Of a stretch of 64,000 nt of DNA, positions 1 through 49,098 are shown piece by piece. Below the pieces are notes generated by a model that had not been told where the DNA came from, did no database searches, and saw only the letters and a program-made list of their open reading frames with translations. The translations under genes were made by a program, and so were the position numbers. The DNA is from a virus (lineage: Duplodnaviria > Caudoviricetes), in the IMG/VR virus record IMGVR_UViG_3300021400_000130, positions 89,614 to 153,613 of that record. The stretch is one strand, 5' to 3'. Positions within the stretch are counted from its first letter, which is position 1. Each line of letters starts with the position of its first letter.

Positions 1-4
1 TAAT

Positions 5-352: not shown

Positions 353-376
353 GTAATAGAATTGGAGTATTAATAA

Positions 377-6036: not shown

Positions 6037-6045
6037 GGAGTACAC

Positions 6046-6552: not shown

Positions 6553-6563
6553 GGAGAAAAGTA

Positions 6564-7639: not shown

Positions 7640-7789
7640 ATGAAAAAGATCAACATGACAGTAGTGAACATTGTCCTCTTTATCCTTATGCTTATTTTTA
7701 ATTGTGAGATTTTTTCTCTTCTTTGTCTGACGGTATTTGCTGCTCAGCTTTTGTCATGGATCTTTAAGCATTATCCAAAGAACTATTAA
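7640..7789 (+). CDS. Small membrane protein (49 aa, not in ORF track)
   Basis: AAGGAG SD; MKKINMTVVNIVLFILMLIFNCEIFSLLCLTVFAAQLLSWIFKHYPKNY, hydrophobic. Confidence 0.55.
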   Translation: MKKINMTVVNIVLFILMLIFNCEIFSLLCLTVFAAQLLSWIFKHYPKNY

Positions 7790-7790
7790 T

Positions 7791-8048
7791 ATGAATAGAA
7801 CAACACAGTATAGACGCTTCCAGGATTTTATTCATAGAAAGCGTTTGAAAAGATTGAGTGAGAATTCCCCAATGCTGGTCTGGTGGAATAGTTTTTCTAA
7901 TCCTAGATATCTGAAACGGTATTACTGTGGCAATCAATTTTTCAAACGACAATCAAGAAAGAAAACTCGTAATCTTCCACTAGAATATAACTTGCCAAAA
8001 GGTAATATTGGTCATAAGTATTATGACTACTGGTGGACCATTATTTAA
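7791..8048 (+). CDS. Basic hypothetical protein
   Basis: ATG two bases after previous stop; K/R-rich, ends YYDYWWTII. Confidence 0.5.
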   Translation: MNRTTQYRRFQDFIHRKRLKRLSENSPMLVWWNSFSNPRYLKRYYCGNQFFKRQSRKKTRNLPLEYNLPKGNIGHKYYDYWWTII

Positions 8049-8060
8049 GGAGAACTTAGT

Positions 8061-9740: not shown

Positions 9741-9744
9741 TTAG

Positions 9745-9773
9745 TTGATTTTGTTTGATGATTATTATATAAT
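9745..9773 (+). promoter_or_regulatory. Sigma-A-like phage promoter
   Basis: AG-TTGATT-N17-TATAAT. Confidence 0.8.
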
Positions 9774-9802
9774 TAAACTATAATAAAGAAGGAGTTACAG
9801 TT

Positions 9803-9997
9803 ATGGATGAGTTTATGGAAGCTATGAAAGAAGTACTTGTTGATAACTTCAATGCTTATGGAGCTGACCCTGGATTTCGTGAGAATGTTGAAGTAATCAA
9901 GGATTGGAGAGAATCCGGGGAGATTACAGAAGATCAGTATAGAGAACTTCGTAGTTTCAATCGTAGTACTTACTCAGATCTTCCTCTTGATATGTGA
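9803..9997 (+). CDS. Small acidic hypothetical protein
   Basis: AAGGAG SD directly after promoter. Confidence 0.6.
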   Translation: MDEFMEAMKEVLVDNFNAYGADPGFRENVEVIKDWRESGEITEDQYRELRSFNRSTYSDLPLDM

Positions 9998-10020
9998 TAG
10001 AGAATTACGGAGGGACAGAA

Positions 10021-10188
10021 ATGAAAAAGAATGTTATTATGATCACTAAAGTTTTCCCTGACGGAAAAGTCCGTATTAGTGCTATTCCTCTTCCTAAGTG
10101 TTCTTCTTTTCTTAGCTCTGTTGTCAAAGAAATGAACCAGCAGGTAAAGAAAGGGATTATCTATAGTTATGAGATTGAATTTATCTGA
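10021..10188 (+). CDS. Small hypothetical protein
   Basis: GGAGGG SD before ATG 10021. Confidence 0.5.
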   Translation: MKKNVIMITKVFPDGKVRISAIPLPKCSSFLSSVVKEMNQQVKKGIIYSYEIEFI

Positions 10189-10206
10189 GTATAAAGGAGA
10201 AAATAA

Positions 10207-10551
10207 TTGTTGGTTACAAGGGAAGAGATTTTGAAAGAAGATTTTTCAGAAGCATTTGTTTCCAAGATGAAAAGTGCTATTGAAATGTCCTACTATAAAT
10301 ATGGCAATGCAAAAAAGACTTACCCAAATTTGGCTCAAGCGTATAAATGTATTCAGCAGAGGTTAGATCTTTATATTAAGACTCATAATACGGAATATCT
10401 TGTAGATGTTGCAAATTTTGCTATGCTTGAGTTTATGTTTCCTTCGTGGGAAGACGCTAAGTATAATCCTACTGACAGCGACGGGTCACCTGGTCTTGCT
10501 GACGGTATCTCTTATAAAGAGATGATGGATAATTTACATTCTATGTGTTAA
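10207..10551 (+). CDS. Putative MazG-like / dATP-dGTP diphosphohydrolase-type protein
   Basis: YKYG ... EYLVDVANFAMLEF helix typical of all-alpha NTP pyrophosphatases. Confidence 0.5.
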   Translation: MLVTREEILKEDFSEAFVSKMKSAIEMSYYKYGNAKKTYPNLAQAYKCIQQRLDLYIKTHNTEYLVDVANFAMLEFMFPSWEDAKYNPTDSDGSPGLADGISYKEMMDNLHSMC

Positions 10552-10562
10552 AGGATACAAAG

Positions 10563-12154
10563 ATGAATACAGAATATTATAATGGAACACCACATTTCAA
10601 TGATTTACGAACACCTATTAATTCATATCCTAGAACAAATTTTGAAAAATACTCATTGCAGTATTGTGAGAACTATCTCCCTTGCGGAGTATGTCGTATC
10701 ACGGGGAAACTTTGTCCTAGAATGAATGATTGTCGTTATCCTAATATAACTTGGAAGTGTTCATAAGGTGCATAAGAAGGAAATGCTATGAGAGATTGTA
10801 TTGAAAGATCGTTAGCAATTGACGAACTAACAGAGAGAAATCTAGTTGTTCATATGGATTCTGTAAACGACGGCCTAGTAGCTTCCTGTCACAGAGCGGC
10901 ACAAAGAATAATTGCAGGTCTTCCAGCTGTAGATCTGTCAAATGAAAGAGCTGTAGTATTCTGTAAAGACTGTCGTCATCGCGATCCTGAGGATCATAAG
11001 TGTGATTGCGGACAGCTTGAGAGGGCTGGTTGTATTTTTCCTGTTAGCGATACATACTTCTGTGCTTATGGTGAACTATGAAAGAATGTTGTGCTACTTG
11101 TCGTAGACAGTATAAACTGATAAAGTTTGATTATTCTCAAGGAGGCTGTAAACATACAGATATGGACGGGTATGTCTGTATGGCTTTTGCAGATCAGAAA
11201 CAGGCTGTGTGGATGGTTGGCAGCCATGAACAGTTTGACCTGTGTGAGTGTTACTTATCAAAGGAAGGTATATAATATGTATGTTATTGAAACGTGCCCG
11301 AAGTGTGGCGGAGATTTGGATCTTCTTACATTAACCTCAAACCCCCCGATACCAGCGCGAAGATGTAGACGGTGCGGATGGTACTGGCAAGGCAAGATGG
11401 AACTGCCAGTGCGTATCCCATTTCAACCGAAGGAGTGAAGGACATGATTGAAGTAGTAGATAGACAAGTTGTTCCTGTCTATGAAGTAGAATGTGTTGAG
11501 TGCCATTCAAAGATTAGATACACAGCATCAGATGTCTCGTGGTGTCACATTCAGTGCCCTGTTTGTGGAATTTCTTTATGTGCTAATACAATATGTCCTG
11601 TCAATTACAAAGAGTTAAAACATGACAAATCCGATAAATGAGTCTCTTTGTATAAGATGTATCAATAAAGATTCTTGCGAGATGTATGATGAAAATCCCC
11701 CATACATTACATCTTGCTATACATTTAAAAGAGCAAAACCTACAAGAGCAGACAAACTACGGTCGATTACAAATACAGAGGAGCTTGTTAATGAAATCTA
11801 TCGCCTTGTAAAGTTGGGTACGAGTTACTCAGATTCAAGGCTTGGTTTAATTGACTATCTTAATCAATATGTCGATTGAGCTAGAAAGGAACTCCGATGT
11901 TGTGGGAGAAGCTAAAAAGATATCTAGAGAAAGCAAAAGAAGAAGATATTGAATGTATGAGACCTAGAAAAGGTGACCACGGATATACTAAGGGATACTG
12001 GATTCACAAAGAAACAAAAAGTTATGCAGGTGGTGGAGCAACTTTCTGTTCTGAATGTGGGTATGGGTATTCCGATCAATACTTTTTTGAAGTAGATCGG
12101 TTTAATTATTGCCCGAATTGTGGCAAGAAAATGAAAGTAGCAAAATTGAAATGA
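10563..12154 (+). other. Run of small, mostly Cys/Zn-finger hypothetical genes (10563-10766, 10788-11081, 11078-11275, 11277-11438, 11444-11641, 11622-11879, 11897-12154)
   Basis: Abutting or overlapping + strand ORFs with CxxC pairs; PAVD..VFCKDC and W..CSEC..NYCPNCG modules recur at 52-57 kb. Confidence 0.6.
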
Positions 12155-12630
12155 ATATTGGGCAGATAATATCTAATAAGATACTTGAACGCTCAAAGGG
12201 ACAGAATGAAAAGATGAATGAAATTGTATACTTTGAATTGAATAATTGGTTCTGCGGAAGAGATTATCCACCGGATGGTAATTTGAAAACATGGGTAGAA
12301 AGTAGTCAATTCAACAATGATACCTGGTGTAAAGAGAATAAGATCTGTGTTAGATCAGGTATCATTGATATGTCTGAAAATTGGTGCATCACTGCAACAA
12401 AAGATTGGGTTGAAAAATGGTGCCCGGAACTTCTTACTGACAAGAGTTATACTTATACAGTATGTATGTACTCTCGTGGAGAGCACACTAAGAAAGAAGA
12501 ACAGGGGTGTTATGCTCAGTTCTTACGACATGAAGATGAAGAGGGAGAAGTATACGGTACATTTGGTTGGCCTTTTCTTGAGTATGAAGAAGGAAACTTT
12601 GGATCTACATATTATAGTGAAGAGGATTAA
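12151..12630 (+). CDS. Hypothetical protein (start uncertain: 12151 or 12214)
   Basis: Fills gap up to promoter; YFELNNW..GRDYP. Confidence 0.55.
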   Translation: MNIGQIISNKILERSKGQNEKMNEIVYFELNNWFCGRDYPPDGNLKTWVESSQFNNDTWCKENKICVRSGIIDMSENWCITATKDWVEKWCPELLTDKSYTYTVCMYSRGEHTKKEEQGCYAQFLRHEDEEGEVYGTFGWPFLEYEEGNFGSTYYSEED

Positions 12631-12635
12631 TTTTG

Positions 12636-12664
12636 TTGATTGTTAAGTTGTTATACTATATAAT
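12636..12664 (+). promoter_or_regulatory. Sigma-A-like phage promoter
   Basis: TG-TTGATT-N17-TATAAT. Confidence 0.75.
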
Positions 12665-12697
12665 TATAATGTAATAACTTATTGAAAGAGTGTACAG

Positions 12698-13600
12698 ATG
12701 AACGAATTTATCATGCTTGTTGGCCCGGCAGGTAGCGGGAAGAGTACTGTTGCGAATAATCTTAGGTCTGAAAATAACAATTATGTGATTGTTAGTTCAG
12801 ATTCTATTCGCTATGAGCTTTTTGGTGATGAGTCCGTCCAGGGCAACCCCGCAGAAATTTTTGCTATCTGTAGATCAAGATGTGCTAATCTTCTCAGTAT
12901 TGGGCACAGCGTTATTTTTGATGCTACTAATCTGAATAGGAAGAAGCGGAAAAGTTTCCTTAATGATGTTAAGAGCCGAGCTGGTGTAGAGTTTACTAAA
13001 CACTGTATTGTTGTTGCGATTACTTATGAAGATTGTTGTGTTCAGAATAAGAATCGTCAGCGTACTGTTCCTGACTTTGTTATTCGTAGGCACTTCAATG
13101 AGTTTCAGATGCCTCTTTATAGCGAAGGCTGGGACAAGATTACTGTTGTTCAGAGGAGTAATATTACATTAGATTCTATTCTTGATAAATGCAGAGGTCT
13201 TGCTCACGATAATCATCATCATAAGTATGATGTTTATGAACATTGTAAACAAACTCAGTCATGGATAAGTTCTAACGTAGACCCTCTTTCTGAACAGTAT
13301 GGAATTCTTCTTCATCTTGCATTGTGGCATGATGTTGGAAAATTTTACACAAAAGTTTTTACTGACAAGAAGGGCAACCCCACTGAGGAAGCACATTTTT
13401 ATTGTCACGAAAATTGGTCTTGTATGTATAACCTTTGTGATGATTACTATACAGGAGATTTCAAGATTAAACTTGCTCAACTTATTTCTTTACATATGAT
13501 GAAGTATCAACCTGAGTATGGTAGATTTATTGAGAAGTGGGCACCAGAGTATAAAGACATTCTTGATATATTCAATAGAGCAGATGCGGAAAGTGCATAA
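12698..13600 (+). CDS. Polynucleotide kinase (AAA_33) fused to HD phosphohydrolase
   Basis: GPAGSGKST, SSDSIR, FDATNL..R, R.R.VP in kinase; HH..VYEH, LWHDVGK, FYCHE, LHM in HD domain. Confidence 0.85.
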   Translation: MNEFIMLVGPAGSGKSTVANNLRSENNNYVIVSSDSIRYELFGDESVQGNPAEIFAICRSRCANLLSIGHSVIFDATNLNRKKRKSFLNDVKSRAGVEFTKHCIVVAITYEDCCVQNKNRQRTVPDFVIRRHFNEFQMPLYSEGWDKITVVQRSNITLDSILDKCRGLAHDNHHHKYDVYEHCKQTQSWISSNVDPLSEQYGILLHLALWHDVGKFYTKVFTDKKGNPTEEAHFYCHENWSCMYNLCDDYYTGDFKIKLAQLISLHMMKYQPEYGRFIEKWAPEYKDILDIFNRADAESA

Positions 13601-13605
13601 TGTAG

Positions 13606-13634
13606 TTGATTTTTACAGAAGAATATACTATAAT
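13606..13634 (+). promoter_or_regulatory. Sigma-A-like phage promoter
   Basis: AG-TTGATT-N17-TATAAT. Confidence 0.8.
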
Positions 13635-13690
13635 TAGTAGTAAGGGCAACCTATATGTTGTTTTTACTACTATTTTTATGAGGGAGTAAA

Positions 13691-14503
13691 GTGTTAGACG
13701 AATACAGACAAGCCTATACGCAGTCTGCTAACCAAATACCTGATTGGAAGAAAGTTAATCGTAATGAATTATGTAGAAGGTATAAAGAAGCAGAACGAGA
13801 TGGTGAAACAGAATTACTGAGTTCCTATATAAGCGCTATTGTTCTAAACTTCTGGCATGTTTTGACAAAAACATATAACAAACAACCTGTTAAAGTATTG
13901 TCAGAAGAAGATTGTTATGAATGCTTGATTGAATCAATACTTTTTGTTTTAGGGCGGGCTGCTTGGGAAGATCCTACTCAGAGTATATACAAAGATGAAA
14001 AAGGTCCAGAAAAAGCAATCAATCTAACTTTTCAACAGAGCATAACAAATCTTTTTGTCGCTGATCAAAGACATAAAAGGAAAGCTATGAGCAATGCTTT
14101 GTCTCTTGATAATACACTGAAAGATGAAGAAGATTCACAAACATTTGTTTCTTTGTTAGCAAAGGATGAATTATCTCCTTTGCTAGAAAATCTGTTTTGG
14201 GGTAAAAAGATAAAACAATATTTTCAAAACAATGACTTTATTGCTGCATTTGTTCTAGATCTTTTAATCAAAGATCCTTCTTTGATTGAAAACAAAGATG
14301 AGAAGTATATTATCAATTCAAGAAAGATTGCAAAACAATTGAATGAACTTCCTGATAATTATGCTCGTGAGTTTTCAAAAGAGTACGGTATCTCTGTTGA
14401 AAAAGTTGAATCTGTTCTTAGTTATCTATATAATGTAAATAGTAGAAATATTGATAAGATATTATATCCTCTGATACAGGATATAAAGAAAGAGTGTGAG
14501 TAG
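13691..14503 (+). CDS. Hypothetical protein, possibly sigma-factor-like/regulatory
   Basis: Helical; RHKRKA..ALSLD resembles sigma region 2/3 junction; heads replication operon. Confidence 0.4.
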   Translation: MLDEYRQAYTQSANQIPDWKKVNRNELCRRYKEAERDGETELLSSYISAIVLNFWHVLTKTYNKQPVKVLSEEDCYECLIESILFVLGRAAWEDPTQSIYKDEKGPEKAINLTFQQSITNLFVADQRHKRKAMSNALSLDNTLKDEEDSQTFVSLLAKDELSPLLENLFWGKKIKQYFQNNDFIAAFVLDLLIKDPSLIENKDEKYIINSRKIAKQLNELPDNYAREFSKEYGISVEKVESVLSYLYNVNSRNIDKILYPLIQDIKKECE

Positions 14504-15220
14504 TTGATTACCAGTAATGATTGCTGGATGAAGGATACTTGTAAAAAATTCTTAAATCAGAGTAAAGAGTGTGAATGTAGAGATAACGATGTGTTCTGCA
14601 TAAAGTTGTTTAAGTTACAACAGCTTTATGACCTGTCTTTACTTACTGATAAACAGCGTATCCGTATTCCTCTAAGAATTGATGCAGATGGGACAGATCG
14701 ACAAGCGTTTGAGCGTTTAAGCGCTATAGAGTCTGACGGAGTTAAACATTTTGTAGATTCAGGAAGTAACTTATATATTTATTCTTCTAATGTGGGAAAT
14801 GGAAAGACGACTTGGGCGATAAGACTTATACAGTCTTATCTAACAAATGTCTGGTATAAGTGTGACATTGATTGTAAAGCACTTTTTGTCAGTGTTCCTA
14901 AATACTTAATCTCAATAAAGGAGAATATTTCAGAACCAAGTGAGTATGCACAACATATTAAGAAGTATGTATACTCTGCAGATATAGTTGTGTTTGACGA
15001 TATTGCAACAAAATCTGCAACAGCGTTTGAACACGAAATGCTTTTTAATATAATTGATGCTCGTGTTAATCTTGGTAAATCAAATATTTTTACTTCTAAT
15101 ATGGATTATACAGGTCTTGTTAATACAGTTGGTGAGCGCATAGCAAGTAGAATTTTTAATACTTCGGAAAAAATTAGATTTGACGGAAAAGATAAAAGAG
15201 CTCTGGGGGTGAGTATTTGA
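14504..15220 (+). CDS. DnaC/IstB-like helicase loader ATPase
   Basis: N-terminal Cys cluster; VGNGKTT Walker A; VVFDDI Walker B; IFTSN; RIASRI. Confidence 0.85.
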   Translation: MITSNDCWMKDTCKKFLNQSKECECRDNDVFCIKLFKLQQLYDLSLLTDKQRIRIPLRIDADGTDRQAFERLSAIESDGVKHFVDSGSNLYIYSSNVGNGKTTWAIRLIQSYLTNVWYKCDIDCKALFVSVPKYLISIKENISEPSEYAQHIKKYVYSADIVVFDDIATKSATAFEHEMLFNIIDARVNLGKSNIFTSNMDYTGLVNTVGERIASRIFNTSEKIRFDGKDKRALGVSI

Positions 15221-39614: not shown

Positions 39615-40028
39615 ATGAAGAAAATGTTCTATAGCGAAGTTCTTGACAAGTATTTTGATTCTGAGGAAGAGTGCCTCAGACAGGAACTGGTTGAGAAGAA
39701 AAAGGTTGCTGTTAAGAAAGAGGAACAGCTCAAAACCGATTCAAGAAAGCAGGCAGCAAAAGAAGTAGAGGAAGCTGTAAAGGCAGTATTCGATGCTTGG
39801 GATGACCTGAAGGATGCAGAAGCTCGAGCGAAAGTTGCGTATACGCAGATTGTCACCCCGGCAAAGGAAAAGCTGAAAGAAGCTGAACAGAAGCGCATGA
39901 AGGCCATTCAGGAATTTAACAAGAAGTTTGGCGTATATACCAAACGGTATACCGGTGAAGAAGCGAAAGATGAATTCCTTCGCACTATTGCTGGTATTGA
40001 AGACCTTTTCAATATTTTCAATATCTAA
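39615..40028 (+). CDS. Coiled-coil hypothetical protein
   Basis: AAGGAGG SD; K/E/A-rich. Confidence 0.65.
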   Translation: MKKMFYSEVLDKYFDSEEECLRQELVEKKKVAVKKEEQLKTDSRKQAAKEVEEAVKAVFDAWDDLKDAEARAKVAYTQIVTPAKEKLKEAEQKRMKAIQEFNKKFGVYTKRYTGEEAKDEFLRTIAGIEDLFNIFNI

Positions 40029-40064
40029 ATTAATTTAACTATATAAAGTTTGTTTTATTATATA

Positions 40065-40090
40065 GAGGCGAATAATTTTCGCCTCCTTAT
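40065..40090 (+). terminator. Hairpin, possible terminator or processing site
   Basis: GAGGCGAA-TAATT-TTCGCCTC, weak U-tail. Confidence 0.5.
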
Positions 40091-40140
40091 GTTAACTTAA
40101 CGACAGGGTTATTAAATGAGTTCAATTCTCATGGTTAACT
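40091..40140 (+). ncRNA. Mini tRNA-like structure (acceptor stem + T-arm, no anticodon arm)
   Basis: GTTAACT/GGTTAAC 7-bp stem; ATGAG-TTCAATT-CTCAT T-arm adjoining the 3' strand; TAAC/GTTA short arm. Confidence 0.5.
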
Positions 40141-40157
40141 TGTAAAGGAGAGATACA

Positions 40158-40931
40158 ATGCAATATTTCATTGTTGCTGATGTTCATAGTTTCTACAATG
40201 AACTGATTACAGCATTAAATAATGCAGAATGGAAGAATGAAGACAATCAGTGTTTTGTTTCTTTAGGAGATCTTTGTGACAGAGGTCCAGACACTATTAA
40301 GTGTTTAGAGTTTGTTAATAATCTTCCCGATAATAGAAAGATATTGATTCGTGGAAATCACGAAGATTTGATGGAACAAGCAATCTGTAGAAAATTGTTT
40401 AAGTTTCATGATATTCATAATGGAACGGTGAAGACTGCAGAAGCTATTGCATTACACGAAGGTTGGAATAGCAAAGAGTGGGGCCTGACAGAATCAGATG
40501 ACAGAGAAATTCTGAATCTAGTTAAAGATTCATCTCTTTGGAATAACTATGTAAATAAAACTGTTAATTTTGCTGAAGTAGGAAAGAATATATTCGTTCA
40601 TGGATGGATACCTACAAAGCTAGATACATGGGAGAAGCAATCAAACTGGAGGTCAGATCTGGCTGATTGGGATAGTGCTCGTTGGATTAACGGAATGGAA
40701 GCATGGAGTAACGGTGCAAAGATAAAAGGTAAGACCATCTGGTGTGGTCATTGGCACACTTCTTGGGGTCATTCTGTTCTTCATCATGACGGTGTAGAGT
40801 TTCCTGAAGCAAAAGGCGACATAGCACACTTTTCACCATTTATTGATAAAGGTATTGTAGCAATGGATGCTTGTACAGCTTTTTCACACAAAGTAAATTG
40901 TAAAGTTATTGAGGTCGATAATGATAAGTAA
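40158..40931 (+). CDS. Metallophosphoesterase (Ser/Thr phosphatase-like)
   Basis: ADVHS, LGDLCDRGP, RGNHE, VHG, CGHWH. Confidence 0.88.
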   Translation: MQYFIVADVHSFYNELITALNNAEWKNEDNQCFVSLGDLCDRGPDTIKCLEFVNNLPDNRKILIRGNHEDLMEQAICRKLFKFHDIHNGTVKTAEAIALHEGWNSKEWGLTESDDREILNLVKDSSLWNNYVNKTVNFAEVGKNIFVHGWIPTKLDTWEKQSNWRSDLADWDSARWINGMEAWSNGAKIKGKTIWCGHWHTSWGHSVLHHDGVEFPEAKGDIAHFSPFIDKGIVAMDACTAFSHKVNCKVIEVDNDK

Positions 40932-41244
40932 AGAAAACTTCTGTGCTCTTCTCTGTTCTTGTAGAGAATTAGATGAATATATTCAAAAGTTGCGTAGGTC
41001 ATTGTGTATCGAACTTATGGATGCCCATCCTTGTTTTTCAACACTTGATACTATTATCGAATGTTTGGATAAGGAGTTTAATTGTGATAGTGTTTCTTAC
41101 TACTTCTATGAAAGGAACTGTAATGGGACCGAGATGAGTGGCAAGCCTACACCATTCCTCTGGGAAGCAGACGGTACAGAAGTATGGATACATTCAGATG
41201 AGGAATTGTATGATTATCTATTAGCAAACAAGAAAGAGGACTAA
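40921..41244 (+). CDS. Hypothetical protein
   Basis: GAGG SD; MISKENF..EELYDYL. Confidence 0.55.
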   Translation: MISKENFCALLCSCRELDEYIQKLRRSLCIELMDAHPCFSTLDTIIECLDKEFNCDSVSYYFYERNCNGTEMSGKPTPFLWEADGTEVWIHSDEELYDYLLANKKED

Positions 41245-41246
41245 TT

Positions 41247-41576
41247 ATGTCGGTAAAAGATGTACACGAATATTACAATAAAGTTTCTTCAGACTATCAT
41301 GATCTAATTCTAACTTTGAAAGACATGGAGGAAGAATATAAAAACAATCTTGTTAGCCCAGAAACACTCAAGAATTTAGAAAAACAGATTGAACCTATAA
41401 AGACAAACTTCCGGACAATATCTTATATTATTTTCTTGTTAAATAAACCAACAAAGAAATCAAAACATGCAAGATATAAGAAGCAGAATAAAAAACTTCT
41501 AGAGAATTGCAGAACTCTTGAAGAAGTACAGCAAGAGAATAAAACTGTATTAAATAATATTAAAGCTGGTAATTAA
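41247..41576 (+). CDS. Hypothetical protein
   Basis: GAGGA SD; followed by terminator. Confidence 0.6.
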   Translation: MSVKDVHEYYNKVSSDYHDLILTLKDMEEEYKNNLVSPETLKNLEKQIEPIKTNFRTISYIIFLLNKPTKKSKHARYKKQNKKLLENCRTLEEVQQENKTVLNNIKAGN

Positions 41577-41596
41577 ATACTACCAGCTTTCTTTTT
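41562..41596 (+). terminator. Rho-independent terminator
   Basis: AAAGCTGGTA..TACCAGCTTT followed by CTTTTT. Confidence 0.75.
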
Positions 41597-41649
41597 AAGC
41601 AGTTTATAATTGTGCTAAATTTCATATTTAAAAGGAAGTTTGTGATTCA

Positions 41650-42067
41650 ATGAGTATAGTAACAATTATACTTTTGATTGTAAGCGTCCTGTATGTCATT
41701 ATTGTTGTAAGAGCAATAATTCAAAAACTGATTCTTGAAAAAGAAATGTCAAAATTAATTAGAAATATAAAATCAAAGAAAGCGAGAAATGATACGGATG
41801 GAACAACTACTACAAGAGATAGGAATTCATGAAACACCGCAGATAGGATCTGACGGAACTTATGTCATAGACATCAAAGATTCAAACGAGTATGGAGTTT
41901 ATTATTCAAAATTAGACAGATCTGATTTACTGGATGAAGATGAAGAAAGTTCTAATGTAACAATAGACGGATCTACAATTGTATATATTAGTGATGATTA
42001 TACACTGACACTGATTGCTGATTTTGCTAGCGATCAGTATAAGCTTACAATCAGAGAAAACGATTAA
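41650..42067 (+). other. Small TM protein (41650-41832) and acidic hypothetical protein (about 41798-42067)
   Basis: Hydrophobic N-terminus in first; overlapping second ORF. Confidence 0.5.
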
Positions 42068-42087
42068 ATTAATTAGGAGAAGACAAA

Positions 42088-42741
42088 ATGATTGCAGGAA
42101 CTAAAGACATCATTACAGATGAAATTCAACTAAGCGAAAGATCAGAAGAAATTGATACATTACATGAAGGTCAATTACTTCAAGAGATTACAAAGTATTT
42201 GAAGAGGACTTTAAGAAAAAGAGAAGATTTGTTTGCTCTGTCAGCACCAGCAATTGGATACAACAAACGAATTTTCTGTATGAAGTTTGAACATGACCAG
42301 ATAAAGACATTTGTAAATCCTATTATTGAATCTTATTCACCGAATGGGATGCAACTGTCAAGAGAAAAGTGTTCTTCACTTCCTGGTAAAGAATACATTA
42401 GGGTCAGAAATAACGATATTAGAGTAATGTATCAGAAACCAACAGGAGAAGCAGAAAGTAATCGGTTACTCGGAAAAGCTGCTTTAGTATTTCAGCATGA
42501 AATGGATCATCTTGAGGGTGTTTTGATTTCAGACATTGGTCTTGAAGTTATTCCTGAATTTGATGAAGCAACAGACGAAGAAAGAGCAGAAGTAATCAAA
42601 GAATATCTTGACTCTCTTGACATTCGTCTAAAAGAAACTAATAAAGAAATACAGAATGATCCGGAATTGAAACAGATTGATGACGCAACAAAATTTATGA
42701 CCGGAGTCTTAACAGGAGAAATCAAACAAACAGAAGATTAA
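42088..42741 (+). CDS. def: Peptide deformylase (divergent)
   Basis: ALSAPAIG, FVNP, EKCSSLPG, VFQHEMDHLEG. Confidence 0.85.
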   Translation: MIAGTKDIITDEIQLSERSEEIDTLHEGQLLQEITKYLKRTLRKREDLFALSAPAIGYNKRIFCMKFEHDQIKTFVNPIIESYSPNGMQLSREKCSSLPGKEYIRVRNNDIRVMYQKPTGEAESNRLLGKAALVFQHEMDHLEGVLISDIGLEVIPEFDEATDEERAEVIKEYLDSLDIRLKETNKEIQNDPELKQIDDATKFMTGVLTGEIKQTED

Positions 42742-42765
42742 CCCGAGAGGATTTATTCAAGTCGT

Positions 42766-43413
42766 ATGGACACAACAATATTACTACGCAGAAGTCACAG
42801 TTTAGGTACTGCCGCTAATGTCCAGTTACAATATGGCGAACCTTTATATACTGACGATCAATATTTTACCGTTGGTAATGAGGCAGAATCATTAGTTAGT
42901 CAGCGAAATGTTATTCGTCTAGTTCCAAAGGCACAAGCTGATTCTCAGTTATACTATACTGTTAATGGTTCAGGACAAATTGTTATTAATATTTTGAATG
43001 GAACGACCTTGACTCCAATTACAACTCTTGGAACAGCCGCTTCAAAAGATGTTGTTAGTGAAGCAGTAGCAAATAGCGATGATCTAATCACAAGTGGTGC
43101 TGTTAAAGAAATTCAGACTCAGTTAGAAAGTTCAATTCAAGATGTCCAGTCTAACATACAGGATTTAGAAGAAGGAATTTCTGATTTAGTAGGAAAAACA
43201 TTAGAAACTACAGTTACTTCTAATTCTGAGAATCCCGTAACAGGAGGGGCAGTATATGCTTTTGTAAATCAGATGATTTCAGAAGCTTTTAACAATTATA
43301 AGCCTTGGACAACAGATTCGTCTGATAACAAGAGATTCTATCTTAACAATACCACTGGGCTACAGTATCATGACGGAACTAAATGGGTAACAGTCCCGGT
43401 AGGATACACTTAA
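42766..43413 (+). CDS. Putative tail-fibre/virion protein
   Basis: TILLRR..LQYGEPLY N-terminus, LGTAASKDV, repeated NS..(L/P)(I/V)T(S/G)GAV, short coiled coil, LQYHDGTKW; all common in phage fibres. Confidence 0.5.
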   Translation: MDTTILLRRSHSLGTAANVQLQYGEPLYTDDQYFTVGNEAESLVSQRNVIRLVPKAQADSQLYYTVNGSGQIVINILNGTTLTPITTLGTAASKDVVSEAVANSDDLITSGAVKEIQTQLESSIQDVQSNIQDLEEGISDLVGKTLETTVTSNSENPVTGGAVYAFVNQMISEAFNNYKPWTTDSSDNKRFYLNNTTGLQYHDGTKWVTVPVGYT

Positions 43414-43440
43414 TAAAAACTAGAGGAGAGATAATAAGAA

Positions 43441-43710
43441 ATGAAAGAGATTCAAATAACAGAAGAACTAAGAGATAAGATTCAGGCAGTGGATTTTGAA
43501 CTTACTGCAACGAAGGATATTATCAATTACATATGGGGTCAGTCTCCTGTTAATATGGAGGCTGTAGAATATTATACTAAACAGCAGAAAGAACTCTTTA
43601 TTGAGTTTGAACTTGCAAAAAACACTCTTGTTAAAATGTATGATCTTAACGGGAAGGATTGGAATCTAGATTATCATACTGCTACTCTTACAATATTCGA
43701 GGAAGAGTAA
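43441..43710 (+). CDS. Small accessory protein of CXXX-repeat modification system (possible RRE-like partner)
   Basis: 89 aa, I.ITEE.RD.IQ..W.LDY.T..LTI pattern; abuts radical SAM gene. Confidence 0.55.
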   Translation: MKEIQITEELRDKIQAVDFELTATKDIINYIWGQSPVNMEAVEYYTKQQKELFIEFELAKNTLVKMYDLNGKDWNLDYHTATLTIFEEE

Positions 43711-45042
43711 ATGATTGGTAATTATGAGGAATATCCAGAAACTTTAAATCGTCTCTTTATAGAAGATAAGACCAGAGGTTTTGATGCAAAAACTGATGGA
43801 ATATATGCAAGAACAATAACATTTCAAGTTACTGAAGATTGTTGCATGAAATGCACTTATTGTTATCAACACAATAAGAAACCAAATGTTATGTCCTTTG
43901 AAATAGCAAAACAGTTTATTGATGATTTACTTTCAGGTTCTGATAAATTATCAAACTATATTCCGAAAGACACAGTTGGAATTGTTCTTGAATTCATAGG
44001 CGGCGAACCATTTCTTGAAATAGATCTTATTAGTAAAATAACGGATTACTATTTTGAAGAGTGTACTAGATTGCATCACCCTTGGACAACAAAAACAAGA
44101 GTTTCAATTTCTACTAATGGACTTTTATATTTTGATCCAAGAGTTCAAGAGTACTTAAAAAAGCATCAGAAACATTTATCCCTCAATATAACAGTTGATG
44201 GAAATAAAGAGCTTCATGACAGTTGTAGAATTGATCTTGAAGGAAAAGGAACTTATGACAGAGTAATTTCTGCAGTAGACGATTATACTACAAAGTACGG
44301 TAAAGGTTCACTTCCTACAAAGATGACAATCTCTCCTGATAATGTTTCTAATCTATATAAAGCTGTTGTAGCAATGATTGAGTATGGATATCCGATTGTC
44401 AATTTCAATCCTGTTTATGAAGATGTTTGGAAAAGAGAAGATGCAAGAATTTTCTATAAAGAGTTAAAAAAACTTGCAGATTATCTCATAGAACATAATA
44501 AACTAGACCCACTCGTATGTCCTTATCTTGCTCCAATGTATTGTCACCCTATGTTACCTGACGATGACCACAATTGGTGTGGCGGAACAGGGGCAATGTT
44601 AGCAATAGATTGGCAAGGAAATCTATATCCTTGTATTCGTTACATGCCGAATGCGTTGGGAGACGAAAGACCCCCTTATGTTATTGGAACAGTTAAAGAC
44701 GGAATAATGAGCACAAAAGAACAGTGCGACAGAATTGATTGTCTTAATTGTATAACAAGAAAGAGTCAGTCTACCGAAGAATGTTTCAACTGTCCTATAG
44801 CAAGCGGCTGTGGATGGTGTTCCGGATACTGTTATGAATTATATGGTACACCCAATAAAAGAACTACATTTATATGTGATTTACATAAAGCAAGAGCACT
44901 TGCTTTAACATATATGTGGAATAAGTACTATAGAAAGATTGGGTCAAAAGATTCTTTCAAGATGGATATTCCTGAGGAATGGGCTTTACAAATAATTGAT
45001 ACAGATGAACTGAAGATGTTAAAAGATTTAGTAAAGGAGTAA
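43711..45042 (+). CDS. Radical SAM/SPASM peptide maturase, CXXX-repeat target family
   Basis: ITFQVTEDCCMKCTYCYQ (CxxxCxxC), FIGGEPF, STNG, SPASM Cys set CGGTG..YPC..CFNCPIASGCGWCSGYC..C. Confidence 0.9.
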   Translation: MIGNYEEYPETLNRLFIEDKTRGFDAKTDGIYARTITFQVTEDCCMKCTYCYQHNKKPNVMSFEIAKQFIDDLLSGSDKLSNYIPKDTVGIVLEFIGGEPFLEIDLISKITDYYFEECTRLHHPWTTKTRVSISTNGLLYFDPRVQEYLKKHQKHLSLNITVDGNKELHDSCRIDLEGKGTYDRVISAVDDYTTKYGKGSLPTKMTISPDNVSNLYKAVVAMIEYGYPIVNFNPVYEDVWKREDARIFYKELKKLADYLIEHNKLDPLVCPYLAPMYCHPMLPDDDHNWCGGTGAMLAIDWQGNLYPCIRYMPNALGDERPPYVIGTVKDGIMSTKEQCDRIDCLNCITRKSQSTEECFNCPIASGCGWCSGYCYELYGTPNKRTTFICDLHKARALALTYMWNKYYRKIGSKDSFKMDIPEEWALQIIDTDELKMLKDLVKE

Positions 45043-45048
45043 TCAGAA

Positions 45049-45855
45049 GTGGCTTCTATTACCCCAGAAAGATTTGTTGAATTAAAAAGTAGAATAACTG
45101 CTGAGTGTATCCGAAGAAGTAAAGTAGGAGATGCTGAAAATAGTGTTTCTTTACAACAGTATGGATCTTCAGCGTATAGTTTTTCTGAAGCACCAGTTGA
45201 AAATAAAAAGGTGCGTCACGAGCATCTTTCCAAGTGCTGGGACATTCTGAACAAAGTAAATGATAATGTTATTACTGATAAGAAAAATAAAGTAATACTC
45301 AATACAGACTTTGCAAAGATGGAAAACTTCGTAAGTGTTCTTGAATCAAATCCTGAACCTGAAACAGTAGTAAAGCAGAGCGGGACTAATTCTAATTACT
45401 CTGATTGTTCAGGGGGTTGTACAGGTCTTTGCTTTGGTTGCACTAGTTGTACTAACGCTTGTAAAGATCAATGTACGAGTTGTACTGGATGTACTAGTTG
45501 TACTGGATCTTGTGTAAACGGTTGTAGCGGAACTTGCACAGATACCTGTACAGGAGGATGTACTGGAACTTGTTCGGGACTTTGCACAACAGGATGTAAA
45601 GATCAGTGCACAGGCGGATGTCTTGGTTGTAGTGGAGGATGCAGAGGATACTGTATTGGAACTACGTCAAAAGGCTACTCTAGTTGCTCATCTTGTGATG
45701 TTGGATGCTATGGTGGTTGCTGTAGTGACTGCTCAAGTAATTGTGGAAATCACATTAATATACCAACAACAGGTTACTCCGCTAATAATAATCAGATAGT
45801 TGGTTGTATAAAACCTGGTTGGAGACCCGACTGGTGGAACGGCAGATATACATAA
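45049..45855 (+). CDS. Cys-rich CXXX-repeat protein, probable radical SAM substrate
   Basis: About 119-aa N-domain, then 30 Cys in CxxC/CxxxC spacing (45406-45744) with T/S/G fill. Confidence 0.85.
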   Translation: MASITPERFVELKSRITAECIRRSKVGDAENSVSLQQYGSSAYSFSEAPVENKKVRHEHLSKCWDILNKVNDNVITDKKNKVILNTDFAKMENFVSVLESNPEPETVVKQSGTNSNYSDCSGGCTGLCFGCTSCTNACKDQCTSCTGCTSCTGSCVNGCSGTCTDTCTGGCTGTCSGLCTTGCKDQCTGGCLGCSGGCRGYCIGTTSKGYSSCSSCDVGCYGGCCSDCSSNCGNHINIPTTGYSANNNQIVGCIKPGWRPDWWNGRYT

Positions 45856-45875
45856 TAAAAGGATAATAGATAGAA

Positions 45876-46490
45876 ATGAATAAGATAAGTTTGAAAGGGA
45901 TGCTCAGAAACATTGAGTATTCTCATAATGTAGAAGATGTTGAGTATCAGAAAGCAGAACTCATTGTTCCTAGAGATGACGGAGAAGATGATGTTCTAAA
46001 CCTTAAGTTTAAAAGATATTCAAACAGATATACAGAGGGTCAGATAGTCTCCTTACAAGGAAATATTCGTTCATATTCTCAAAGGTTAGATTCGGAAAAG
46101 AATAAAGTTGAGCTATATGTCTTTACTTATTTTGATATTCCACAGACAGATGAGAACGATAAAGAAATTATAAATCAACTTGAAATTGACGGGAAAGTAT
46201 GCAAGATTGATAAGTTAAGAAAGAATAAAGAAGGTAAAGAAAGTTTTCATTTTATTCTTGCTAATAACATATTTGTAGAAGATCGCGATACAAGAATTGA
46301 TACTTATTTACCTTGTGTATGTTTTGGAGAATGTGCAAGAAAGTTATCAAAAGAATTACATGTTAGCGATTATATAATTCTAAAAGGACAGTTACATTCA
46401 AGAACTTATAAGAAATATTATGAAAATGGTGAAATGGAGATTAAGACAGCTCATGAGGCGGTGATTTCATCTTATGAAGGCCTCGATTAA
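45876..46490 (+). CDS. ssb: Tandem OB-fold single-stranded DNA-binding protein (clostridial type)
   Basis: GNIRSY, YLPCVCFG..A, GQLHSRTYKK, TAHE. Confidence 0.8.
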   Translation: MNKISLKGMLRNIEYSHNVEDVEYQKAELIVPRDDGEDDVLNLKFKRYSNRYTEGQIVSLQGNIRSYSQRLDSEKNKVELYVFTYFDIPQTDENDKEIINQLEIDGKVCKIDKLRKNKEGKESFHFILANNIFVEDRDTRIDTYLPCVCFGECARKLSKELHVSDYIILKGQLHSRTYKKYYENGEMEIKTAHEAVISSYEGLD

Positions 46491-47044
46491 ATATCTCCCA
46501 GAAGAGTCTTATTTAGCCTCTGTAGAAATAGAGGATATTGGAAATGTCGCACTTGTTATGTATAACGACATGGGGCAAGAATGGTATCTGTTAACAACAA
46601 CAGAATTAGGCTGGACAAAGACTTACTTATTTGGTCCGTTGTTACCAGATGTGAACAGCTTAGTGATAAAGAATTTCTCTTTTTCTTATTCAGAAATAGA
46701 GTATAAAGAAACAAAGCTATTAAACACCATTGAAAAATTTATTCAAGACCCGAAGAAAAGTATAACACAAGTATTTGAAATTAATAGAGAAGATGTATTA
46801 GATAGATACAAGAGTCTTGAGATAGGTGACTGAAATGTATGTTAAAACAAGAACTCCAATAAGAGAATTTAGTGGAAGAATAATCGGATTTGTTGAGGAA
46901 GACGCACAAGGAGATCAACAGATAAGAGATTTTACTGGACATATTCTTGGATTTTATAGAAAGAGAGAAGATAAAACTCGAGACTTTCACGGAAGAATAG
47001 TCGGTAACGGAAATCTTTTAATGATGTTGTTAAATCGGAAATAA
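46474..47044 (+). other. Two hypothetical CDS (46474-46833; about 46826-47044 with three RDF.G.I.G repeats)
   Basis: Coupled ORFs before terminator. Confidence 0.55.
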
Positions 47045-47045
47045 G

Positions 47046-47080
47046 AAAACAGAGACAAGTATTATCTTGTCTCTGTTTTT
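47046..47080 (+). terminator. Rho-independent terminator (possibly bidirectional)
   Basis: AAAACAGAGACAAG-TATTAT-CTTGTCTCTGTTTT(T). Confidence 0.85.
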
Positions 47081-49098
47081 ATGTTAGTTGATATTAATTA
47101 AATGTTATTATATAATATACATGTAAAGTAAATTAATCTGAAAAGGAGAACTTCAAATGAAAATCTATGTTGTGATTGAGGATATTGATGATTACCCCGA
47201 AATGGGTGGCGGGTCGCATCTCGATGCGGTTTTTCTGAACTATACTAATGCGGAAAAATATGTAAAGCAGAAACAGCATGAAGCTGACGCTTGGGATGAT
47301 TTTTGTAGAGACCGCATTTCTTGGCATGTTGAGACTTGGGAAACTGCTGATGAAAGGGAGAATGAAAATGACTAAATATTCTGTCAGTGTTCTTCATAAT
47401 GGTAAGCGGACGGGGATAGCGTTGTTTGCTGATTACTATAGTATAGTAAGAAGAAGTGGAGTAAAAAAATGAGAACTTGTCAGAATTGCGGTTGCTACAT
47501 TCCTGATAAATGGACTACTTGCCCTGCCTGTTGGAGACGCGTAGAGCCTGTGCTCAAAGAGAAAAAGACTGAATGGAACTCTTGGAGAGATGGAACACGC
47601 TATACTGAGGAAAAACCGTATAAGGGTAGCTATTCAAAATGCTATTGCGTAAAGATTTACTATAAGGACGATACGACGGTAGACACCATCTTTACTACTC
47701 TTGAAAATGCACTCAACTATGCCCAAAAAAAGATAGACAAATTTTGGTATTACGTACAGTTTATTGAAGTGTGGGATTGTCAAACGCAAGCAAGGATAGG
47801 ACTTTTCTATCCTAACTCTTAACAAAGGAGAATAAAAAAATGGTTGCTGGTAAAATTATTGGTATGCTTATCTTGTGGATTGGCGTTGCTATGTACCCTC
47901 TCGCAGATGAGGATGCTACCCCGCAGGCTTGGCACAAATTCCTTCAAAATCTTTTAAATTCTGTCCCTATCGTGCTTGGGGCACTTATTATGACTTGTGT
48001 GTAAAGGAGATAAATAAAATGACAGTCTACAAAGTTACAGTTGAACGCTCTGGCAAGTATGATGGTGAGTATTTTGTCAACGTTGATGATAGACGCGCCG
48101 CCGTCAACAAAGTCCGCGCTCTTGGTCTTCAAGATGGCGACAGAGTAATTGTTACCAGTGCTTTCCCTTTTACCCTCTATAATGGGGACATTATCAAAGG
48201 CAAATACGTTATGTAAAGGAGGGCTGAAAATGTTTCATACAAATGAAATTATTGCCTTTTATTTCAAGGCTCATCCCTCTGTTTCTTATGAAACTATTGC
48301 CGCAACTCTGAAACTTGTCTATGATTTGACTGATAAAGAAATCGAAGAGGGGTATAAAATTTTCAAAGAAACTCTTGACAAGTAAATGAATCTATGTTAT
48401 ACTATAATCACAAAAGAAAAGGAGATAATAAAAATGATGGTTTATTTACTGTGGGAACACGATGGTAATGAAACTAATCTTTTTGGCGTTTATCGTCTGA
48501 AAGATAAGGCTGTCGCTTGGGAAGAATACCTTGAAAAAAGGGCTAAGGATGATAGCCTGTACTGGCTCCAGTATAGCGTTACGGAAGCGTATGTGAGGGA
48601 ATAAAATGTATGTTTATGTAATCGTTCATGTCTATGTAGACGAAGATGGCTATGGCCATGAAAAGGTGAGTAGCATTTACAGAAGTCATGATGAAGCGCA
48701 GGCGCGCGTCAACGAACTAAACTCTATGTGCTTCCCTTGGGACATTGAGTGGTATGAGATTGATGAAATGTGGATGCACTGAAAAGTAGCATAACTTTTT
48801 AGAGGAGATAAAAATGAAAAAGTTTGTTTATCAGGTTGATGGCTTTGAGTTTGTAGATACTGTTGCTTTTGGTGAAGCTTGGAAGGAAGCTAAGGAGGAA
48901 GCTACTGCACTCCATGTTCCGATTTATCGCCTTGTGATTGAAGATGGCAAGGTGCGCGAAGAGGTTTACGTCAAGTCTGGTTGTTTCCTGCGTTCTGACC
49001 TAGCCCTTGTAAAGAATGTAATGATTTTCTAAAGCCTTAACCACTTAAGTTGATTTTAATTTACTCTTATTATATAATATACTTGTAAAAAGAAAAGA

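Follow-up and report, generated by a model that had tools for sequence, protein, structure and literature searches.

Peptide maturases of the radical-SAM/SPASM class are known from the biosynthesis of small natural products that are secreted. Among the systems that resemble the locus described here, the bacterial CXXX-repeat system comprises a TIGR04115 maturase, a TIGR04116 associated protein, a TIGR04119 second maturase and TIGR04114/04117/04118 targets, all of which are bioinformatic definitions (NCBIfam). A literature search found no experimental paper on this system and no characterised TIGR04115 member. In the ranthipeptide/SCIFF systems, i.e., PapB/PapA (freyrasin) and CteB/CteA (5WGG), a radical-SAM/SPASM enzyme acts on a Cys-rich substrate, which is a short peptide with a cleaved leader.

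QhpD, also a SPASM radical-SAM enzyme, puts several Cys thioether bridges into the QhpC subunit, which stays in a larger assembly. In phages, the fibre-tip adhesins and tail-fibre assembly proteins of the T-even gp38 type are encoded just 3' of the fibre gene. The literature searched contains no description of a phage cassette with a radical-SAM enzyme, a cysteine ladder and a fibre gene; in one cyanophage paper a radical-SAM 'antibiotic synthesis' gene is merely listed.

Genome setting of the cassette

The window analysed is a 64,000-nucleotide stretch of a complete virus record (153,613 bp, with terminal repeats), and its phage identity is indicated by a tail sheath gene and by the single coding strand used for all genes. 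Four plus-strand ORFs occupy 42766-45855 with intergenic gaps of 27, 0 and 6 nt, so that the tight coupling of four genes noticed in the initial annotation holds. Its remark that genes for a protease, an exporter or immunity are missing next to the cassette was also borne out, the neighbours being a peptide deformylase (42088-42741) on one side and an SSB (45876-46490) on the other. The genes themselves are directly established, and the features of the region are as follows.

41562..41597, + strand: hairpin, AAAGCTGGTA...TACCAGCTTT then CTTTTT (a T-run), read directly; a scan listed the same palindrome on the minus strand
42766..43413, + strand: P0002, 215-aa fibre-type protein, first gene of the cassette (ORF list, homologues)
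43441..43710, + strand: P0003, 89-aa helper (ORF list, remote TIGR04116-like profile match)
43711..45042, + strand: P0004, 443-aa radical-SAM/SPASM maturase (TIGR04115 score)
45049..45855, + strand: P0001, 268-aa target, whole gene (GTG start, AGGAG 8 nt upstream)
45049..45402, + strand: N-domain of P0001, aa 1-118 (AF2, profile search)
45403..45744, + strand: cysteine ladder of P0001, aa 119-232, presumed site of modification (Cys counts)
45745..45855, + strand: C-terminal tail of P0001, aa 233-268 (...GCIKPGWRPDWWNGRYT), and stop codon (alignment within the lineage)
47045..47080, + strand: terminator-like hairpin with a 15-pair stem (scan)

Some 36 kb separate the cassette from the tail and baseplate block, which lies upstream, and its surroundings are replication, repair and auxiliary genes, a setting that the initial annotation did not mention. 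The position of the cassette between deformylase and SSB is kept in all six related contigs (L003-L008). The hairpin at 41562..41597 is likely, from its sequence, a terminator placed before the unit of transcription to which the cassette belongs, and the one at 47045..47080 probably ends that unit. Together they suggest that the cassette shares one unit with the deformylase/SSB-type neighbours. A sigma-70-like promoter follows 3' of the second hairpin (GTTGAT at 47087; TTGATA/TATAAT hexamers spanning 47088-47116; 11/12 match). Promoters of the GTTGAT-N17-TATAAT type front the other non-structural units of the genome and are absent from the unit of the cassette.

A candidate late promoter motif (TGCTAAAT / TTGTATA) was dropped, as its 7 copies against ~5 expected by chance represent no enrichment. 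An Rfam scan of 40000-48000 returned no RNA family, and a search of the genome for paralogues returned neither a second radical-SAM gene nor a second Cys-ladder gene. The possibility of a recent, unexpressed acquisition from a host was rejected, since at least six related contigs have the cassette in the same position, the synonymous sites have reached saturation and dN/dS is only 0.10-0.19.

The radical-SAM enzyme and its helper

P0004 scored 423.5 bits against TIGR04115 (curated NCBIfam cut-off 350) over model positions 1-358 of 359, and by this score it is a member of that catalogued but uncharacterised CXXX-repeat maturase family; this family assignment is directly established. Its CX3CX2C motif corresponds to C44/C48/C51, and its SPASM-type C-terminus has 11 Cys within the last ~150 residues, including CFNCPIASGCGWCSGYC, in line with the radical-SAM/SPASM maturase recognised at first reading. 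The next best models all scored below their cut-offs, i.e., PapB (165.5 bits, cut-off 340), the SCIFF maturase (114, cut-off 425) and QhpD (97.5, cut-off 453). Among solved structures CteB (5WGG; E 8.3e-24) is the closest, with an alignment that runs through the SPASM region. Because this alignment begins at CteB residue 75, P0004 is without a fused N-terminal recognition domain.

The nearest characterised relatives of P0004 (PapB, CteB and QhpD) are all formers of Cys thioethers, and the thioether chemistry proposed for the phage enzyme is taken from the PapB/CteB-type relatives. PapB and SCIFF are the best-scoring of the characterised relatives, yet P0004 is far below both cut-offs. As the literature search found no characterised TIGR04115 member, the predicted chemistry of its product rests on relatives matched below their own thresholds.

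A homologue of the helper, 86-104 aa in length, adjoins the enzyme gene in most loci examined. P0003 had no match to the TIGR04116 HMM. A profile of ten phage helpers, when aligned with a bacterial TIGR04116 member, gave an hhalign probability of 67.6% (E 5e-5) over 80 columns, end to end, and the motif W-x-L/I-D/N-Y/F-x-T is common to the phage helpers and that member. P0003 is therefore likely, at the level of remote sequence similarity, a counterpart of the TIGR04116 'CXXX repeat peptide modification system protein'. It probably helps P0004, and would stand in for the substrate-recognition domain that is fused in related enzymes.

The phage cassette resembles the bacterial CXXX-repeat system in having a TIGR04115 maturase and, next to it, a target in which Cys recurs every four residues, whereas the ~90-aa associated protein of the bacterial system is only remotely similar, by profile, to the phage helper. 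In a bacterial example (L002) the models score 630, 104.6 and 235.3 bits, the last of these for TIGR04119, which is a separate gene there. The complete phage genome is without a TIGR04119 partner, as the only match (17.6 bits) fell on the SPASM region of P0004 itself. The target in L002 has a twin-arginine signal, with TatA/TatC adjacent; in place of such a signal the phage target has a folded N-domain of ~100 aa. The phage cassette also differs in its carrier and in having a fibre-type gene as a constant fourth member.

The CXXX-repeat architecture proposed in the initial annotation holds for the maturase family and the Cys spacing. P0001 had no match to TIGR04114/04117/04118 or to Pfam PF27846 even at E<=10, and the family members P0009 and P0020 have only weak precomputed PF27846 matches.

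The cysteine-ladder target

P0001 contains 33 Cys, 30 of them within residues 120-232, the first ladder Cys being residue 120. Of the 29 Cys-to-Cys spacings in the ladder, 19 are of 4 residues and 8 of 3, and the spacers are made up largely of G (24), T (18) and S (16), which matches the CxxC/CxxxC register with Thr/Ser/Gly spacers that had been described for the C-terminal half. Across the target family the consensus is C-[ST]-G-[GST]-C, with a spacing of 4 in 959 cases and of 3 in 247, and an opening unit CxxxC[TS]G[LM]C in 36 of 52 members. The ladder is 87% identical with zero indels across six related phage contigs, in which the N-domain is 69% identical, and its dN/dS is ~0.10. Given these three features (no indels, 87% identity and low dN/dS), the ladder is not chance or drifting low-complexity sequence; by these sequence measures it is under strong purifying selection, which is directly established. 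The C-terminal tail is likewise 87% identical within the phage lineage, and wider family members end differently.

The ladder could instead remain uncross-linked and bind metal ions or Fe-S clusters, in the manner of a metallothionein or ferredoxin of great length, with the radical-SAM/SPASM protein doing another job, such as a different side-chain modification or help with cluster loading. We regard this reading, which is close to the metal- or Fe-S-binding effector offered as a side option in the initial annotation, as unlikely. The density of Cys (30 over 114 residues, the spacers being small) would suit it, as would the null result of AF2, which gave no confident structure for the ladder alone, and the twin-arginine signal of the L002 target with its TatA/TatC neighbours, Tat being a route for folded, often cofactor-bearing proteins. 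It fits poorly, however, with the closest characterised relatives of the enzyme, all of which form thioethers on peptide cysteines, with the position-specific spacers, which suggest defined acceptor residues, and with the presence of a dedicated maturase beside the target in all examined loci with flanking DNA.

AF2 models residues 1-100 of the N-domain at a pLDDT of ~90 and places helices at 6-22, 57-70 and 85-100. As modelled, this part of P0001 is a folded helical domain rather than a signal or leader. The stretch before the first ladder Cys agrees in length with the ~119 aa noted earlier as far longer than a typical leader. A profile search collected 79 clusters at E<=1e-3 in the N-domain family, mostly viral, with the motif RFxxLKxxVKAECxRR...YGG..YDY...P...EH..K; it is the N-domain together with the Cys ladder that characterises this family. 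In a wide PDB fold search with the P0001 model the highest Z was 5.4, for generic helical proteins, and no known fold was assigned; T6SS TssK was discarded as a fold relative (Z 4.2 and 3.6, too weak). The same model retrieved only unannotated gut-virome family members from BFVD. One family member, P0011, has an extra 180-aa domain fused N-terminally.

These properties bear on whether the locus makes a secreted antimicrobial RiPP, in which the N-domain would be a long leader that is cleaved off and the cross-linked Cys peptide would be freed at lysis to act against competing bacteria. The enzyme class is indeed typical of sactipeptide and ranthipeptide pathways, but we consider this reading very unlikely. 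The N-domain is a confidently folded 100-aa domain in the AF2 model, the core is more conserved than the supposed leader (87% vs 69%), P0011 carries its further N-terminal domain, relatives of the cassette are located in tail-fibre modules, and protease, exporter and immunity genes are absent from the cassette and from the scanned neighbour genes of its relatives.

The phage system differs from the ranthipeptide and sactipeptide pathways in that it has no protease or exporter gene and that the enzyme has as its substrate a protein of 268 aa and two domains, with 30 Cys, rather than a short PapA/CteA-type peptide. For the stapling of a structural protein, as opposed to the making of a peptide, QhpD/QhpC offers the closest precedent, although QhpC belongs to a bacterial periplasmic enzyme and has 3 bridges made by the radical-SAM enzyme, against a ladder of up to 30 in a phage part.

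Tail-fibre context and proposed role of the module

P0002 is the only fibre-type neighbour of the cassette in the window. It has 29 homologues of the same length, with identity down to 46% and invariant N- and C-termini, and a C-terminal motif, L-W/Y-I/V-D/N-T...G-L-K/Q-Y-x-x-G-x-x-W-x-x-V-P-V-G-Y-T. Its last 18-36 residues match the C-termini of genes directly upstream of the cassette in L009 (E 5e-6), L012 (E 2-3e-5) and L010 (E 1e-3), and the 435-aa upstream protein of L010 matches the PHROG tail collar fibre family (1.9e-17). The earlier description of P0002 as 'fibre-like' is thus upheld only in part, by a C-terminal motif in common with PHROG-annotated fibre genes but not by a match of its own, as P0002 had none in Pfam, PHROG or the PDB. 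Searches of PDB sequences with the P0002-family profile, and for longer fused homologues, returned nothing significant. The AF2 model of P0002 is poor (mean pLDDT 57), with a central helix at 111-138. A predicted complex of three P0002 copies with the P0001 N-domain scored 0.00, which is below the mark and counts neither way on binding.

A comparison of loci placed the cassette beside fibre-type genes in the relatives. Enzyme and target genes are adjacent in the window, in L003-L008, and in L001, L009, L010, L012, L015, L016 (two pairs) and L017, as well as in eight Clostridia-MAG loci found by a genome scan with a narrower N-domain alignment. The target family adjoins the enzyme and a fibre-type gene in all loci long enough to judge. 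The cassette is within or beside tail-fibre/baseplate genes in L001, L010, L016, L017 and L024, and between baseplate and lysis genes in L010, L016 and L024. In L010 the order is Sheath_initiator, Phage_Wedge1, the 435-aa tail collar fibre gene, cassette, DUF6273, XkdX and a CHAP gene, the presumed lysin. In L024 it is gp25, Baseplate_J, Tail_P2_I, fibre gene, helper, enzyme, target, further fibre-like genes and endolysin. The target of L016 is directly 3' of a 744-aa BppU_N tail fibre gene, and L017 is similar. Both the association of the four genes and the fibre-module context in relatives are direct observations.

The setting in the window itself could be taken to mean that the modified protein acts within the host cell, in takeover or counter-defence, and that the fibre-type neighbour is a relic of the origin of the cassette. 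The deformylase/SSB flanks and the replication and repair surroundings, kept in six related contigs, are in keeping with this, as is the single unit suggested by the hairpins at 41562 and 47045. We nevertheless hold it to be quite unlikely, as the fibre-type gene is intact and conserved with the cassette, the target family sits in tail modules elsewhere, and, as weak evidence, the unit is without the promoter type of the other non-structural units.

The target also invites comparison with gp38-type proteins, as an analogy only. Their gene position is like that of the target in L016, L017 and L024 (after or near a fibre gene), and in their layout, as in that of P0001, an attachment-type domain at the N-terminus precedes a repetitive Gly-rich one. 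However, no sequence or fold similarity to P0001 was found, and gp38-type proteins have neither a need for a radical-SAM enzyme nor a cysteine ladder.

We consider it rather probable that the cassette is a phage version of the CXXX-repeat system, in which the enzyme modifies a fibre-associated Cys-ladder protein, likely by thioether cross-linking. P0004 and P0003 would modify the 114-residue ladder of P0001 post-translationally, most likely by many bridges from Cys sulfur to carbon in Ser, Thr, Gly, Asp or Asn spacers, and the bridged ladder would form a compact domain proof against reduction and proteases. The folded N-domain would be retained, probably as a recognition handle for helper and enzyme, a docking part, or both. 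Mature P0001 may then work with P0002 as a virion component at the tip of the fibre or accessory to it, or as an assembly factor. The initial proposal that RiPP-type radical-SAM chemistry has been turned onto a fibre-linked phage protein is supported by the TIGR04115 enzyme, the folded N-domain, the mostly viral family and the baseplate/tail-fibre context of the relatives. On this reading the gut-type phage probably uses the enzyme to staple a part of its own host-recognition apparatus.

The named hosts of the target family are strict anaerobes (Christensenella, Oscillospiraceae and Clostridium), which fits an enzyme sensitive to oxygen and also the need for cross-links able to withstand a reducing environment. 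A fuller version, which we put forward as possible but rather doubtful, is that phages of the anaerobic gut use a private radical-SAM enzyme to install up to ~30 thioether bridges as a redox-proof substitute for disulfides, giving a hardened tail-fibre tip or adhesin whose N-domain serves as enzyme handle and fibre dock.

An enzyme class associated with small peptides here goes together with a folded protein of two domains and with tail-fibre genes; the four genes form a conserved phage module that is spread among many uncultured gut phages and Clostridia prophages. The cassette could also serve as an off-the-shelf means of introducing many thioether staples into a protein. Should the target prove to be a cross-linked component of the virion, enzymatic protein stapling would be added to the known ways in which phages build and stabilise their host-recognition apparatus, and would explain covalent cross-links without disulfides in particles from strict anaerobes. 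TIGR04115, so far uncharacterised, would then gain a first biological role, and the target would be the first host-recognition part of a virion built by RiPP-type enzymatic cross-linking.

The cassette and its predicted maturase

The initial annotation had proposed that radical-SAM chemistry was repurposed onto a phage protein linked to a fibre-like gene, and the four ORFs on which it was based were confirmed, separated by gaps of 27, 0 and 6 nt and each preceded by a ribosome-binding site:

42766-43413, + strand: P0002, upstream gene (215 aa)
43441-43710, + strand: P0003, helper (89 aa)
43711-45042, + strand: P0004, radical-SAM/SPASM enzyme (443 aa)
45049-45855, + strand: P0001, target (268 aa; N-domain, Cys ladder and C-terminal tail)

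P0001 contains 33 Cys, 30 of them within residues 120-232, and the ladder has spacings of four (n = 19) or three (n = 8) residues, the spacers being G, T and S. The enzyme matched NCBIfam TIGR04115 ('radical SAM peptide maturase, CXXX-repeat target family') with 423.5 bits against a cut-off of 350, whereas its scores for the remaining maturase families were all well under their own cut-offs (PapB, 165.5; SCIFF, 114; QhpD, 97.5 bits). Its CX3CX2C motif is formed by C44, C48 and C51, and the SPASM end is Cys-rich. Given this family membership and the exceptionless adjacency of the two genes, P0004 very probably modifies the Cys ladder of P0001. Multiple thioether bridges would be the somewhat favoured chemistry, as all characterised relatives form them, yet none of these families scores over its cut-off.

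The nearest solved structure to P0004 is the SCIFF maturase CteB (5WGG; E 8.3e-24), and because the alignment begins only at CteB residue 75, P0004 lacks a fused N-terminal substrate-recognition domain. For comparison, we used a record with the classical bacterial CXXX-repeat system (MT837480.1, 6.8 kb), which is filed as 'Bacteriophage sp.' and appears to be bacterial rather than phage. The set there is complete: besides a target with a twin-arginine signal, there are matches to TIGR04115 (630 bits), TIGR04119 (235.3 bits) and TIGR04116 (104.6 bits), and TatA and TatC come next. In contrast, no TIGR04119 gene was found across the complete genome of the window phage, P0001 opens with a domain instead of a signal and was unmatched by the CXXX-repeat target models, and P0003 was unmatched by the TIGR04116 model to which the bacterial helper belongs. 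A profile of ten phage helpers aligned end to end with the bacterial TIGR04116 protein (hhalign 67.6%, E 5e-5), and phage and bacterial helpers have a C-terminal W-x-L-D-Y-x-T motif in common. The helper could thus provide the missing recognition function with the N-domain as its handle. We give this role an even chance: P0004 has no such domain fused to it, most loci have helper, N-domain and enzyme together, and the helper remotely resembles TIGR04116.

As the enzyme family is already catalogued, we do not class the cassette as a new kind of system; what is new is a phage, fibre-linked, N-domain-bearing form without TIGR04119. Our literature search found no paper that characterises the TIGR04115 family or refers to a version of it in phages or linked to fibres.

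The target family and its conservation

In the AF2 model of P0001 (49-sequence alignment), residues 1-100 form three long helices with pLDDT ~90, and the ladder has pLDDT <55. A fold search of the N-domain against solved folds gave no convincing match. Searching exhaustively with an N-domain profile retrieved 79 clusters at 50% identity, ~50 of them full length and carrying 14-41 Cys (median 28) after the domain, whose consensus is RFxxLKxxVKAECxRR..GSV..YGG..YDY...P..G..I..EHY.K...PL.AIN. Of 52 family members, 36 have a ladder that starts with CxxxC[TS]G[LM]C, and throughout the family Cys are spaced by four residues in 959 cases and by three in 247, with C-[ST]-G-[GST]-C as the unit. Viral sequences make up 89-100% of the nearest Atlas clusters, and structural matches in BFVD were confined to proteins of uncultured sipho-, podo- and myoviruses that carry no annotation.

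The family also includes larger proteins: P0011 (L009:775-1902) has a ~180-aa additional domain ahead of the N-domain, and P0048 (L010:10001-11191; 396 aa) has an insert separating the N-domain from the ladder; neither addition matched a Pfam family. At another cassette-bearing locus (L015:1618-3989) the target is translatable only with TAG read as Gln, and L015 is therefore a stop-codon-recoded phage. The enzyme predicted there is 548 aa long and may include the helper as an N-terminal fusion.

Selection was evaluated on the window together with six related contigs, also viral, whose enzymes are 82-88% identical; all six contain both enzyme and target. In two of them (L004 and L007), reading the genes in succession gave deformylase, the 215-aa gene, helper, enzyme, target and SSB. 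Across this lineage, P0001 is 69% identical in the N-domain and 87% in both the C-terminal tail and the ladder, where non-Cys positions are 83% identical and no indel was found. For the nearest pair, we obtained a dN/dS of 0.10 in the ladder against 0.19 in the N-domain; in a more distant pair synonymous sites were saturated. These patterns indicate that P0001 is an expressed, tightly constrained protein. Drifting low-complexity sequence or a dead import is ruled out by the lineage conservation and dN/dS, and the same patterns speak against the recent, unexpressed host acquisition that the initial annotation had named as one of its counter-cases.

Genome setting in the window phage

The virus record (153,613 bp) is complete, with terminal repeats of 108-bp overlap and a CheckV value of 100%; the window is its right-hand 64 kb, and all genes of the record lie on a single strand. 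Landmarks, in window positions unless marked otherwise, are:

genome 69.2-70.6 kb: tail sheath gene; after it, a tape-measure-like gene encoding lysin domains
42088-42741, + strand: peptide deformylase
41562-41597: hairpin and T-run, candidate upstream boundary of the cassette's unit
47045-47080: hairpin, candidate downstream boundary
7258, 9744, 12635, 13605, 21068, 30382, 38267, 47087, 49049, 49498, 50146, 60764 and 61708, + strand: GTTGAT/TATAAT promoters

We read the very large ORFs reaching into window positions 1-7000 as the remainder of the tail and baseplate block, judged by size and position. From ~8000 onward the window encodes helicases, DnaB, DNA polymerase, clamp, UvsX, SbcCD, exonuclease and phosphoesterase. 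In this lineage the cassette, including the fibre-type gene, is located ~36 kb past the tail block, between the peptide deformylase and SSB genes. The deformylase (Pfam PF01327, E 5e-26) has a ~65-aa C-terminal extension, and its position directly upstream of the cassette is kept in related contigs.

The two hairpins probably delimit one unit of about ten genes. A sigma-70-like promoter, GTTGAT-N16-19-TATAAT, occurs 22 times in the genome on the + strand and, because none falls in the structural region (genome 27-96 kb), serves as a marker for early and middle units. None was detected from the first hairpin to the cassette, the next being at 47087, a gap weakly compatible with non-early expression. 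A search of the genome gave no late promoter motif that could be defined.

Fibre modules in relatives and a putative virion role

Outside the window lineage, the cassette is located among tail genes. On a 171-kb contig (L010), genes for tape measure, Dit-like protein, PAAR, sheath initiator, a 537-aa protein, Phage_Wedge1 and a 435-aa protein are followed by helper, enzyme, target, a 1076-aa protein, DUF6273, XkdX and a CHAP lysin; the 435-aa protein matched the PHROG tail collar fibre (1.9e-17) and tail fibre (1.3e-14) families. On a 207-kb contig of an Oscillospiraceae MAG (L024), the order is GPD hub, GpU, gp25, Baseplate_J, Tail_P2_I, a 349-aa fibre gene in the same position as tail-fibre gene H of phage P2, helper, enzyme, target, two further fibre-like genes, reverse transcriptase and endolysin. 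The reverse transcriptase (CAKTTB010000001.1, L024:12879-14180; RVT_1, E 9.7e-13), a few genes past the cassette in the same prophage tail-fibre module, may represent a diversity-generating retroelement directed at a fibre-like gene.

In phage contig L016 a target lies immediately after the gene for a 744-aa BppU_N tail fibre protein, and two target and enzyme pairs occur ~4 kb apart (L016:7762-14719):

7762-8565 and 12089-12862: targets
9380-10741 and 13295-14719: enzymes

A fibre protein carrying a shared C-terminal domain precedes the target in L017 and L001, where the enzyme is followed by large proteins of fibre or tail type. All eight Clostridia MAG loci contain target and enzyme, six have a helper (no match in L025 and L028), and six have a fibre-type C-terminus just upstream, the exceptions being the short contigs L025 and L027.

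The proteins upstream of the cassette fall into two classes by C-terminus. One ends in L-W-I/V-D-T...G-G-L-K-Y-x-N-G-x-x-W-x-x-V-P-V-x-Y-T/S, as seen directly in P0002, L004, L009, L010 and L012; six MAG loci were added by BLAST match to the L009 or L010 proteins. The corresponding motif of P0002 is ...GLQYHDGTKWVTVPVGYT, and because it recurs in the upstream genes of relatives' cassettes, P0002 truly belongs to the module and is conserved in it. The 'fibre-like' label was upheld to this extent, but searches with P0002 itself gave no match to a fibre family, a solved chain or a longer protein. The C-terminal ends of the Cys-ladder protein (…WWNGRYT, 45745-45852) and the fibre-type protein (…VPVGYT, 43390-43410), noted as G-x-Y-T, may match by coincidence or reflect a common C-terminal signal.

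Given the context in relatives and the common fibre motif, the product is likely, at the level of the family, to be either a virion part associated with the fibre or a factor in its assembly; for the window phage we regard the same role as evenly balanced. Hosts named for this family are strictly anaerobic bacteria, which would fit an oxygen-sensitive enzyme, and reduction-resistant cross-links would be attractive in such hosts.
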